Source of the DNA: Candidatus Iainarchaeum sp.
GTDB taxonomy: Archaea > Iainarchaeota > Iainarchaeia > Iainarchaeales > JAFCCJ01
Length of the DNA stretch: 16,945 bases
Reading direction: 5' to 3'
NCBI GenBank assembly: GCA_043816965.1
Contig: JBDRHK010000081.1
Coordinates: forward strand, 1-16,945
Part shown: positions 3,001 through 6,000 of the stretch, piece by piece
Numbering within the stretch: the first letter of the stretch is position 1
Layout: every line of letters begins with the position of its first letter
Position numbers: made by a program

Positions 3001-6000
3001 AGGTGCTGATTCTCGCAAAAACAGAAATCGCGGAAAAGGTCAGGGAAATGTTCAGTTAAGATTCCTATTTCTCTTTTCCAAATCCGAGCATCTCAAGAAT
3101 TGATTTGTGAAATGGTTTCTTGGGTCCTCTTAAAGGCTCGTGATAGTTTTTGGTCTTATCGGCATAAAATCACCATTCCGGCTTTATTTTCCCGTGCTTT
3201 TCAACAATCAATTTTTTCAAATCCTCCAGTTTCGGGAGGGTGGTTTTCAGCACGCTTTTGTGCCTGTGCGCGGTTATTGAAACTTCCTCTTTCGAGATGG
3301 TTTTTTCGTTTTCGAGTTGTTTCATTAAATTCCCCTAGTCCTCATTGCAAATCCAATACCGCGTCTTTTTTTAGTCCTTGCCCCGTCATCAGAAGGGTTT
3401 AGCGTGCTAATAGCTGATTTCTTAGTCCGTCTTGCCCCTGGTCGTTTCGCCATAAATTATCACCAAAATAATTAGGTTGCCAATTGTATTTAATTGTTGC
3501 GTAAGGGGGCATTTGGGCTATCCGAAAGATATTTAAACCCTGAAAGGCAGAATATATATTGGTTTAAATGAAAAGTGAGTGTCTTCATATGTGCGGTGGA
3601 TGCGACGGATGCGGCCCGCCTTACTAATTTTCCTAGAGATACTTACAGTAATGAATTAAATGATTTGCAGAACCTAATTAATCCTGTTAATGGCGGCGAT
3701 AGTGTAGTGGTTAGCATACAAGCCTGTGGAGCTTGTGGCCCGGGTTCGAATCCCGGTCGCGGCCCCTATGCAATGGTGATTTGAATGGCTTTTCAGAATG
3801 TTCGCGGGATGAGGGATTTTCTCCCGGAAAGGATGAGGAAAAAGCAGTTTATTGAGGACACCTGCAGGGAAGTATTTGAGTTGTATGGCTTTTCCCCTAT
3901 CCAGACACCTGCTGTTGAGGAATTTAACCTTCTTTCGGCAAAAGGATCTGGCGGGGAGGCAATTAAGGACGAAATTTACTACTTCAAGGATAAAAGTGAC
4001 AGGGAACTAGGCCTTAGGTTTGATTTGACAGTCCCTACTGCAAGGGTTGTTGCCACAAACCAGAATATTGCAAGGCCATTTAAGCGCTACCAGATTGCGG
4101 AAGTTTGGAGATATGACAGGCCGCAGGCTTCCAGGTATAGGGAGTTTACCCAGGCCGATGTCGATATCTTTGGTTCAGGGTCAATGCTCGAGGAGTTTGA
4201 AATTATTGCACTTACGATTGAGGTGTTTAAGAGATTGGGTGCTGACTTCTACATAAAAATTAATAATAAGAAACTGCTTGAGGAGATTGCGGGAAAGTGC
4301 GGAGTGGCAAAAGGGAAGATTGTTGAGTGTTTAAGGTGCCTGGACAAGCTGGATAAAATTGGTGTTAAGGGGGTTAAGGAAGAGCTTAAGGGGAAAGGTA
4401 TTGATTCAGGAATCCTCGATGTCATTCAGAAGAATGATTTGAAAGAGGCGGAGAAATTGGTTGGCAAAGTTTCTGAGGGTTTAAGTGAGTTGAATGAGGT
4501 TTTGGATTTTTTGGAAAATGCCGGTTTGGGCAGGTATGTAAAGGTGGATTTATGCCTTGCGCGCGGTTTGGAGTACTACACTGGAACTGTTTTCGAGGTT
4601 ATTGCCGGGGGAAAATGGAGCTGTGGCGGCGGTGGACGCTATGATAAACTTGTTGAAATGTATGGAGGGAAGCCAAGCCCTGCAATGGGAATTTCATATG
4701 GGATTGACAGATTGCTGGATGTTCTGGAAGATAAGATTGTTCCTGTTGCCTCACCGAAAATTTTTGTTGTTCCTGTGGGGAAGGAGAGTATAGGGAAGAG
4801 TTTAGAGCTGGTGCAGAAAATCAGGGGCGAGGGAGTAAGCGCTTCAATGGATTTAATGGGGAGAGGCATTAGCAAGAACCTGGATTATGCAAACAGGCAG
4901 GGGATTCCTTTTGTCATTGTCCTTGGGGAAAAGGAATTTGACGAGGGGAAATTCAAATTGAAAGATATGGAAAGCGGGAAGGAAACTGAAATTAAGTTTG
5001 ATGAATTGGGTAAGTTGAAATCGATATAGATTGGATAAGGGCGATTTAAATTCCTTACTTTGTTCTTTATTACTATGAACAAGGGCAGTAAGCTTTACTT
5101 GCTTATTTTTTCGATTATACTGTTTTTGTCATTTGTGGCCAGGATTTATCCTTTGCAGGAAGTTCATTGGTGGGATGAGACTGTTTATTTGCAGCATGCC
5201 GAAATAATTACTGGCTTAAGGACAAATAATTTTGATGAATTTAATCTAAGGCCACCTCTGCTCCCGGTCCTATTTGGGCTGGGATTTCTGGTTTGGCACC
5301 ATCCGTTTATGGCAAGTTTTATTGTTGCTGCTCTCGGAATTTTGGGAGTATTCTACATCTATCTGCTGGGAAAGAAATTATATGGTGAGAAATTAGGGTT
5401 AATTGCTGCCCTGTTTTTAGGCCTGGCGCCATTCATCGCCCGGAATTCCAGGACACTAATGACTGATGTTCCATCACTAGCCTTGTTGACAATGGCAATT
5501 TATTATTTTTTCAGTTATTCTGAAAAAAATAAAAATCCAATCGGGTTGCTTTCCGGCGCATTATTTGGTCTGGCAATTCTTATGAGATTTTCAACTTTGC
5601 CGTTGTTGGTTCTCTTATTCTTAATTTACTGGATTTCTAAAAAGAAAAACCTGTTTTCATTCAAGGAATCTAATTTCATAATAACCAATTGGAAATCACT
5701 TTTTATTGGATTTATCGCTGTTTTGCTCCCGTATTTTATTTGGTCGCAAATTAGTTTTGGTTTTTTCCTCACTCCAATTCTTGCTGCATTTTCCGCCATA
5801 TCTGACATTAATGAGCCTCTATTTTTCTACATTTCCGGCCTTCCGACAGCATACCCTTTAGTGTTGTTAATCGGCCTATTGGCAGCCCTATTTTTCCTGT
5901 TTTTCCAGTACCGCAAATCAGAAATAAGATGGGTTAGTTTTTCCCTGCTTTCGTGGGTATTTCTGGCCCTGCTTTTTATGTCATTATCCCTGCACAAAGA

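Follow-up and report, generated by a model that had tools for sequence, protein, structure and literature searches.

A conserved +1 frame that opens at a histidine codon leads through tRNA-His to hisS in Iainarchaeota and probably serves amino-acid sensing

Why should a reading frame without a start codon at its origin stay open across an entire tRNA gene and stop directly in front of the gene for the cognate synthetase? This question is raised by the hisS locus (3530-5029, contig C81) of a tiny, uncultured DPANN archaeon of the Iainarchaeota (genome 1.34 Mb, 86% complete), located in a window, i.e. the whole stretch of DNA that was analysed, of 16,945 nucleotides. A preliminary description had proposed that a ribosome shifts frame at a His codon of a leader ORF, passes through the tRNA-His gene and is handed over to hisS; this view is supported by comparative signatures, from which we infer all of its steps. 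It stands as an account of the His cassette but understates the scope, as the genomes point to a general amino-acid cassette for which crossing a tRNA is just one of several outputs. The finding as a whole is real and conserved, with an amino-acid-sensing function that genome comparison suggests: the cassette is very probably a programmed +1 frameshift site resembling that of prfB, which senses charged His-tRNA and is coupled to its target by reinitiation.

Layout of the leader, tRNA-His and hisS

All features lie on the forward strand. A TATA-like box (3530-3537) marks a putative single promoter, from which a nearly leaderless transcript would start. The leader ORF (3568-3627; 19 codons, frame 0) reads MKSECLHMCGGCDGCGPPY from ATG 3568 to its stop and has its single His codon at position 7. 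The slip site (3583-3588) consists of CTT (3583-3585), which as CUU in the P site can re-pair to UUC, and of the His codon CAT (3586-3588) in the A site; an element inside the ORF that resembles a Shine-Dalgarno (SD) sequence, AGTGA (3574-3578), lies 4 nt ahead of the P-site codon. From TTC 3584 the +1 frame (3584-3784) runs through 66 codons, none of them for His, crosses the tRNA and ends with TGA 3782-3784, abutting ATG 3785, whereas frames 0 and +2 are shut by several stops over the same stretch. Thus, both the leader with its CTT-CAT site and the 66-codon frame are present as described before; in line with the earlier statement, the frame lacks a start codon at the shift point, but GTG 3596 and, 3 codons ahead of the stop, ATG 3773 lie in it.

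tRNA-His(GTG) (3693-3766, with G-1 encoded at 3692; tRNA and Rfam searches) is the only tRNA-His among the 32 scored tRNAs of this genome. hisS (3785-5029) encodes a histidyl-tRNA synthetase of 414 aa (PF13393, PF03129; TIGR00442 above cut-off). Its start had been placed at 3785 instead of the called 3809, and this assignment is confirmed: position 1 of the TIGR00442 model aligns to residue 4, which lies upstream of 3809, and the SD sequence GGTGA (3775-3779), contained in the end of the +1 frame, precedes ATG 3785 by 5 nt, a spacing typical for this genome (4-6 nt at its initiation sites; 60/41/34). The stop of the +1 frame and the start of hisS thus form a TGA-ATG junction (3782-3787).

A 151-nt contig from a public DNA run spans 3538-3688 with four substitutions and no gap, and the layout recurs in the genus mate, as stated earlier. 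An assembly indel is therefore unlikely. Among the DNA contigs of public runs none spans the whole stretch. Shuffling of the locus leaves the +1 frame open with p=0.03, comparable to the 3.8% given before, so that this locus alone is suggestive at most. A conserved RNA structure at the leader was rejected, since three folds were no better than shuffles (z -0.15, -0.10) and Rfam, searched over 3000-3900 down to E=1, returned the tRNA alone, with no leader and no T-box match. No terminator-like hairpin was found between leader and hisS.

Conservation of the +1 frame and its entry site

The comparison started from 184 loci, mostly best-scoring: 104 from the order, where 181 of 196 genomes have a hisS match, and 80 of 379 HisRS relatives. 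After removal of 7 loci without the anchor motif and 21 duplicates 156 were kept. In 86 of these tRNA-His ends at most 250 nt from hisS; the remaining 70, about half of them from other phyla, have no adjacent tRNA-His. The slip site, whose definition made no use of the +1 frame and which was searched for within 260 nt, is present in 72 of the 86 loci, absent from 12, and 2 loci offered too little sequence. Of these 72, whose kin are not independent of each other, 59 have a +1 frame that runs through the tRNA (null expectation 4.4), as against 3 for the +2 frame and none for frame 0. The spacer is open in the +1 frame in 66 of the 72 (10.9 expected), and an open phase of the tRNA is entered in 61 (29.7 expected). 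An adjacent tRNA-His occurs in 18 families, 16 of which include a crossing case (100 loci of the order, 27 families). Only 3 of the 96 frames of the 32 scored tRNAs of this genome are open over the same span, one of the three being the frame discussed here. Crossing, previously reported for 11 of 12 loci, is thus indeed common, but failures are commoner than one in twelve: in 13 of the 72 leaders the +1 frame stops before or inside the tRNA, which may reflect loss or sequence error. About 6 of the 12 loci without a site carry, by eye, a LAGLIDADG-like ORF ahead of the tRNA; in one of them (L101) a site lies 1.27 kb further upstream, and its +1 frame is that ORF, 421 aa in length.

The stops of the 59 crossing frames pile up at hisS: 56 fall within -10 to +20 of its start (21.9 expected) and 32 at exactly 0, +1 or +4 (7.7 expected). 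This span corresponds to the range in which reinitiation works in Haloferax, where, according to passages of PMC10666635, it is down by 60% at 13 nt and gone at 22 nt. One of the three loci with a distant stop (L233) meets a second His site past the tRNA. Moreover, the frame is purged of His codons, with 3 in 4401 codons of the 59 crossing frames, one of which is the second site, and 1 in 1811 codons of the +1 spacers vs. 59.6 in shuffles; the other two frames contain about 2.5% and, as a comparison value, long ORFs of this genome 1.4%. The tRNA introns in five site-bearing loci (114, 75, 108, 51 and 51 nt) are all multiples of 3, so that the +1 frame survives with or without splicing. A conserved +1 peptide, in turn, was rejected: mean identity is 10%, lengths vary from 45 to 132 codons and the peptide of this locus has no Pfam match. 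In agreement with the preliminary description relatives cross the tRNA in different reading frames, the T-arm being read in at least two phases (40 and 10 loci, 9 unassigned). The openness of the frame is hence conserved and under selection.

The same holds for the entry site. The 72 leaders were picked at peptide level and their codons counted thereafter. The P-site codon is CTT in 49, ATT in 14 and GTT in 9, with no other synonym and always followed by C; the codon three positions before is AGT (43), AGG (15), GGC (12), GGG (1) or CGG (1), and never TCN. As codon choice is restricted in leaders that were selected by their peptides, conservation sits in the nucleotides. An SD-like word lies 4 nt ahead of the P-site codon in 68 hisS sites; the 3' end of 16S rRNA reads GAUCACCUCC in a relative and was not found in this assembly. 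Relatives contain at most two adjacent His codons where this leader has one, and in 60 of the 72 the stop of frame 0 is at most 6 codons away from the His codon. A -2 shift, which would lead into the same frame, was rejected, as it would offer no consistent re-pairing codon and the +1 slip would always yield TTC, TTT or CCC. At -40 to -26 of the leader ATG, the position of an archaeal TATA box, TATA-like words occur 111 times in 71 loci; ahead of the tRNA they number 27 in 72 loci. This peak before the leader, which has no counterpart before the tRNA, points to one transcript, and a promoter of its own for tRNA-His was rejected on the same grounds.

A-site codon and downstream pathway

The motif had also been noted at hisG, where it is found in this genome and beyond. 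The order holds two classes of HisG match. Members of the strong class, among the matches listed, lie inside operons and have their own start. All 33 loci of the weak class were taken and 32 parsed; a site feeds the HisG frame in 30, and 2 are uninformative (a gap and a contig end). Ahead of the conserved PK motif the HisG frame contains no ATG in 29 of the 30 and no ATG, GTG or TTG in 5, with some GTG or TTG in the other 25. By script the sites comprise 18 single fusions, 8 double shifts and 4 chains of shift, stop, restart and shift; on inspection by eye, four of the single fusions have another site further upstream. P-site codons are CTT (18), GCC (6), GTT (3), ATT (2) and CTC (1), and in ten sites of one family the SD-like word lies, by eye, 7 nt upstream instead of 4. 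At the hisG locus of this genome a HisG-like frame, with hisD next in line, is fed from the leader MYMRVELVH. The SD-like word there is weak, and a TTG 2 codons ahead of the PK motif is a rival start. The protein looks like a divergent short form that scores above cut-off for PF01634 and matches only ATP-PRT structures in the PDB, its TIGR00070 score being 70.1 bits (cut-off 75.75).

New here is that the A-site codon follows the downstream pathway, namely His, Trp or Pro. A pattern with a free A-site codon gave 88 rows over 111 genomes, among which CAY was frequent and CTT-TGG and CTT-CCN recurred, and an A-site-blind scan was then run at hisS, trpE, proC and proS loci. Ahead of hisS (86 loci) 66 of 67 sites have CAY. 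Ahead of trpE (30 loci, 57 genomes) all 17 sites are CTT-TGG, and thus all read CTT-T; 5 are fused into TrpE and 12 lie ahead of tRNA-Trp, which none of these 12 leaders crosses and in front of which they end in W-x-W clusters and hairpins. At proC (29 loci scored of 30 given, 32 genomes) CCN occupies the A site in 9 of 10 sites, 3 of the nine being fusions and 4 having an ATGA overlap at their end; proS (30 loci, 36 genomes) contributes two sites, both CCA, so that a Pro codon is found in 11 of 12 sites ahead of proC or proS. Four Pro frames cross a tRNA-Pro, e.g. in the genus mate, where the frame ends in ATGA at proC in a layout like that of the hisS locus studied here.

This genome has a Trp site ahead of tRNA-Trp and trpE (contig C106). 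A weight-matrix scan of the genome returned 13 matches with the His site first and the Trp site third, hisG being missed; a loose scan gave noise and the His site, and a regex hunt for sites at other synthetase genes yielded 9 candidate ORFs with no convincing site among them. As single cases, we observed a Cys site leading to a short ORF and on to a PALP-family gene, and a Pro site leading into an amino-acid kinase.

Sites also occur in three further archaeal phyla, i.e. in four altogether. Samples of hisS loci centred on Thorarchaeota, Aenigmatarchaeota and Micrarchaeota contain sites in 5 of 30, 2 of 30 and 9 of 26 loci, of which 4, 1 and 6, respectively, show coupling or fusion, and the majority of hisS loci in these phyla has no site directly upstream. 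In five loci of the Micrarchaeota sample the frame passes tRNA-His and ends no more than 19 nt from the start of hisS. In the Asgard phylum one hisS lacks an ATG and is reached by way of the site instead, with a second similar case by eye.

Proposed mechanism and relation to known systems

The combination of NTT-CAY with a set SD-like spacing, a +1 frame devoid of stops and His codons, the pile-up of stops, HisG frames without ATG and the match between codon and pathway supports the following interpretation. A single promoter would give rise to a leader/tRNA-His/hisS transcript. A ribosome that starts at ATG 3568 would reach the slip site so that CUU occupies the P site and CAU the A site, with its 16S rRNA paired to the SD-like element 4 nt upstream. 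With ample His-tRNA, CAU would be decoded, translation would stop at 3627 and the downstream RNA, left free of ribosomes, would be cut by RNase P and RNase Z to release tRNA-His, hisS receiving basal initiation from its own SD. If His-tRNA is short, the peptidyl-tRNA-Leu would slip from CUU to UUC, and the shifted ribosome would read the His-free frame through the pre-tRNA, terminate at TGA 3782 and reinitiate at hisS ATG 3785. The SD of hisS would let this essential gene initiate, as it has to, even where no coupling occurs, and the shift probably raises a basal level. By the same cassette, his biosynthesis genes would be opened through direct fusion, sometimes with two sites in series, and cassettes with Trp or Pro codons ahead of trp and pro genes may act alike.

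Crossing the tRNA may also divert the transcript from tRNA maturation; this is the weakest step of the proposal, and we regard it as somewhat doubtful. RNase P RNA and HARP were not found in this 86% complete genome. The RNA was, however, detected in 5 of 5 relatives, and this genome encodes Rpp29, hence absence of RNase P was rejected and the enzyme is treated as present. With a single tRNA-His found and RNase P in the lineage, ribosome passage and tRNA maturation would therefore compete for one RNA.

The sensing cassette has to be weighed against simpler accounts. The +1 shift might be constitutive, the His codon being merely slow, and fix the proportion of downstream protein at a low value, or that of HisRS relative to tRNA; frameshifts of fixed ratio are the commoner class in the consulted part of a review (PMC8211752), but they predict neither an A-site codon that tracks the pathway for three amino acids nor the purge of His codons from the +1 frame, rendering this account improbable. 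Slightly less probable still is a stalling attenuator without frameshift, where pausing at the His codon acts on the folding of the RNA, its termination or its processing, the open +1 frame being incidental. Leaders that sense one amino acid are a classical design, frameshifting at pheL of E. coli is judged incidental in passages of PMC5009743, T runs of at least 5 follow the tRNA in 21 of 72 loci, and the Trp leaders with their W-x-W clusters and hairpins ahead of tRNA-Trp may well include a stalling step. Stalling leaves unexplained, however, the 59 open frames where 4.4 are expected, the avoidance of His codons, the introns in multiples of 3, the stop positions, the restriction of the P site to NTT and the HisG, TrpE, ProC and HisS frames without ATG, and no significant fold is seen at this leader.

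The +1 frame might also be entered by SD-directed non-AUG initiation or by slippage of RNA polymerase instead of a ribosomal shift. The SD-like element resembles an initiation SD, ATA, ACG or ATT is often the next codon, and this genome offers GTG 3596 in the +1 frame and a TTG in hisG. Yet TTC is often followed by ACA or ATC, and Trp sites by GGN, none of which is a start codon, in every case an ATG lies upstream in frame and frame 0 soon meets a stop, a homopolymer run for polymerase slippage is absent, and neither process explains the match of codon and pathway, so we consider this route very improbable. Chance or an assembly artefact, for which p=0.03 at this locus and the assembly of the genomes from metagenomes could be quoted, has a negligible probability, as the motif recurs in 16 families and four phyla, an independent contig is gap-free over the site and the comparative counts already refute it.

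Taken together, a programmed, amino-acid-sensing +1 frameshift accounts best for the data, against which stand the early stops in 13 of 72 leaders, the loci lacking a site or an adjacent tRNA, the SD of hisS, the GTG or TTG codons in most hisG frames and the uncrossed tRNA-Trp genes. We go one step further and tentatively speculate, with slightly more doubt than confidence, that several archaeal phyla (Iainarchaeota, other DPANN and Asgard) use a modular, programmable and stackable +1 cassette as a counterpart to attenuation. It would consist of an SD-like word, NUU and one hungry codon whose first base is C or U (for His, Trp, Pro and perhaps Cys), and ahead of a tRNA gene the shifted ribosome would decide between tRNA and synthetase mRNA, balancing tRNA-His against HisRS. 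If true, the frameshift mechanism proposed above would represent a new kind of amino-acid sensor and a natural case in which hungry-codon frameshifting has been selected for a function. Programmed +1 shifts would then be widespread in archaea and could explain how these organisms gauge their amino-acid supply on the ribosome. The mechanism would imply SD scanning by elongating archaeal ribosomes, coding-frame selection on tRNA genes and their introns, and wrong or missing starts of many hisG, trpE, proC and some hisS genes in these genomes. With about 20 nt the cassette is testable in a model archaeon and could be a compact amino-acid sensor.

In the literature searched, which included few subscription journals and no supplements (supplementary frameshift catalogues could list such sites), we found no description of an amino-acid-matched frameshift leader in archaea. 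The sections consulted of a 2021 review report one demonstrated archaeal frameshift, a -1 event, and do not contain "histid" (PMC8211752), and in the part seen of a Nanobdellota preprint "frameshift" denotes assembly errors and prfB only. The fucA1 (-1) site of S. solfataricus and the predicted chlD site likewise represent recoding in archaea (PMC8211752, in part), whereas the sites described here are +1, SD-assisted, matched to an amino acid and present in many genomes. Slippage in the +1 direction when the A-site aminoacyl-tRNA is scarce is shared with hungry-codon shifting in starved E. coli and with CUU-AGG-C of yeast Ty1, as outlined in passages of a 2016 review that names no natural hungry-codon frameshift with a starvation-specific function (PMC5009743); here, in contrast, the site is conserved and wired to the cognate pathway. 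In ketolide-dependent ermCL, too, a leader frameshift lets translation continue through the intergenic region and activates the downstream gene, but there the trigger is a drug, a hairpin at the ribosome binding site is unfolded instead of stop and start being coupled, and no tRNA is crossed (PMC5009743, in part).

Stop-start distances of 0, -1 and -4 nt are known from archaeal termination-reinitiation (PMC10666635 and PMC6728339, both in part), which requires that the next start lie no further than about 20 nt from the stop, the distance being 0 nt here and within this range in 56 of 59 relatives; unlike in usual coupling, the upstream frame would be conditional and its peptide is not conserved. 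Leader-peptide attenuators (hisL, trpL; pheL, PMC3082878; mycobacterial polycysteine sORFs, 10.1101/834739; the latter two seen in part) similarly have a ribosome on a short leader sense the cognate charged tRNA and control biosynthesis or synthetase genes. The locus differs from them by a single sensing codon in place of a run of cognate codons, by a change of frame in place of a choice between terminator and antiterminator, and by the lack of both a significant alternative structure and an Rfam leader; Stem I with its specifier and the antiterminator of a T-box are likewise without an Rfam match over 3000-3900.

Among the closest systems is the autoregulatory +1 frameshift of bacterial prfB (RF2), which, according to passages of PMC5009743, has a short frame-0 ORF, a P-site CUU that re-pairs to UUU with a first-position G:U pair, an internal SD 3 nt upstream, a slow A-site codon as sensor and a functional product in the +1 frame. 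Here, a re-pairing P-site codon and a short, fixed SD spacing are found, but not UGA or RF2: the organisms are archaea, the A site holds a sense codon of the pathway (CAY, TGG or CCN), the P site may also be AUU, GUU or GCC, the SD-like word lies 4 nt upstream, his, trp and pro genes follow, and the output would often be reinitiation past a tRNA or two shifts in series. The parts are known from prfB and reinitiation; for neither the logic of sensing nor the route through a tRNA did the literature searched offer a description. The cassette would work like prfB without being a member of that class, and would do the job of an attenuator without an attenuator's defining features.

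Histidine leaders and their frame-0 tails

At three of the loci compared (L054, L145 and L348) at least three His sites are chained along one operon, i.e. in the leader, 3' of the tRNA and before hisG or hisD, and L348 additionally contains several consecutive site-like repeats. In the hisG genes that would be entered by two shifts (L138-L141 and L202-L224) the first leaders share a conserved peptide start, MNPTF(F/Y/I)P, and L140 encodes HisG as a fusion with an aminotransferase and a HAD domain.

The frame-0 tail, i.e. the part of the leader's own frame that lies 3' of the His codon (3589-3627 in the window; also L008, L013, L063, L153 and L348), is frequently rich in Cys and Gly, resembling CGGCDGCG, and includes an acidic run in some cases. 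It may be a small metal-binding peptide produced under ample histidine. A small Cys/Gly-rich ORF of the same type is found at L007 without a His site.

Reading frames and tRNA-His at the sites

LAGLIDADG-like ORFs are located between the leader and tRNA-His at L101, L163, L164, L170, L173, L198 and L240, the one at L101 coinciding with the His site's +1 frame. Asp/Glu racemase-family ORFs would be entered from His or Trp sites at L012, L063 and L336, and those at His sites have no ATG of their own. Moreover, beyond Iainarchaeota the +1 frame upstream of tRNA-His or hisS frequently encodes an AbrB/MazE-like small protein (L092, L104, L105, L107, L299, L304, L315, L324, L326 and L327; the Pfam check refers to L105 only).

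The tRNA-His of the window carries a G-G mismatch at acceptor-stem pair 3:70 (positions 3695 and 3762), which was flagged by the Rfam alignment. By eye, the same mismatch is also present in several relatives.

Other genes of the window

A LAGLIDADG-domain gene (8593-9234) lies on the strand opposite to tRNA-Thr and overlaps its end. Two ORFs (186-821 and 10114-10677) share a near-identical N-terminal signal-like region, and neither has a Pfam match. The window further encodes an SLT transglycosylase-domain protein in an archaeal host (13924-14805) and, immediately 3' of tRNA-Glu, a tyrosine integrase (15008-16379), which likely marks the edge of an integrated element.

Proline and tryptophan versions

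The Pro version crosses tRNA-Pro at L384, the genus mate, and at L390, L417 and L441. The frame of the genus mate ends in ATGA at proC, and those of L417 and L441 stop where a second tRNA-Pro begins. At L346, upstream of two tRNA-Pro genes and proS, the full SD-like context is present, but the codons are CTT-CTA (Leu); this leader is possibly a decayed Pro site.

The Trp leader of the genome under study lies close to one end of contig C106, at a distance of about 200 nt, on the minus strand. Here and at L359-L381, the +1 ORF downstream of CTT-TGG terminates in a W-x-W cluster immediately 5' of tRNA-Trp and trpE, its stop codon frequently lying within the loop of a small hairpin, and tRNA-Trp is crossed in none of 12 cases. 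The Trp leaders seem to combine a frameshift with a second Trp sensor, of the stalling type, that comes after it.
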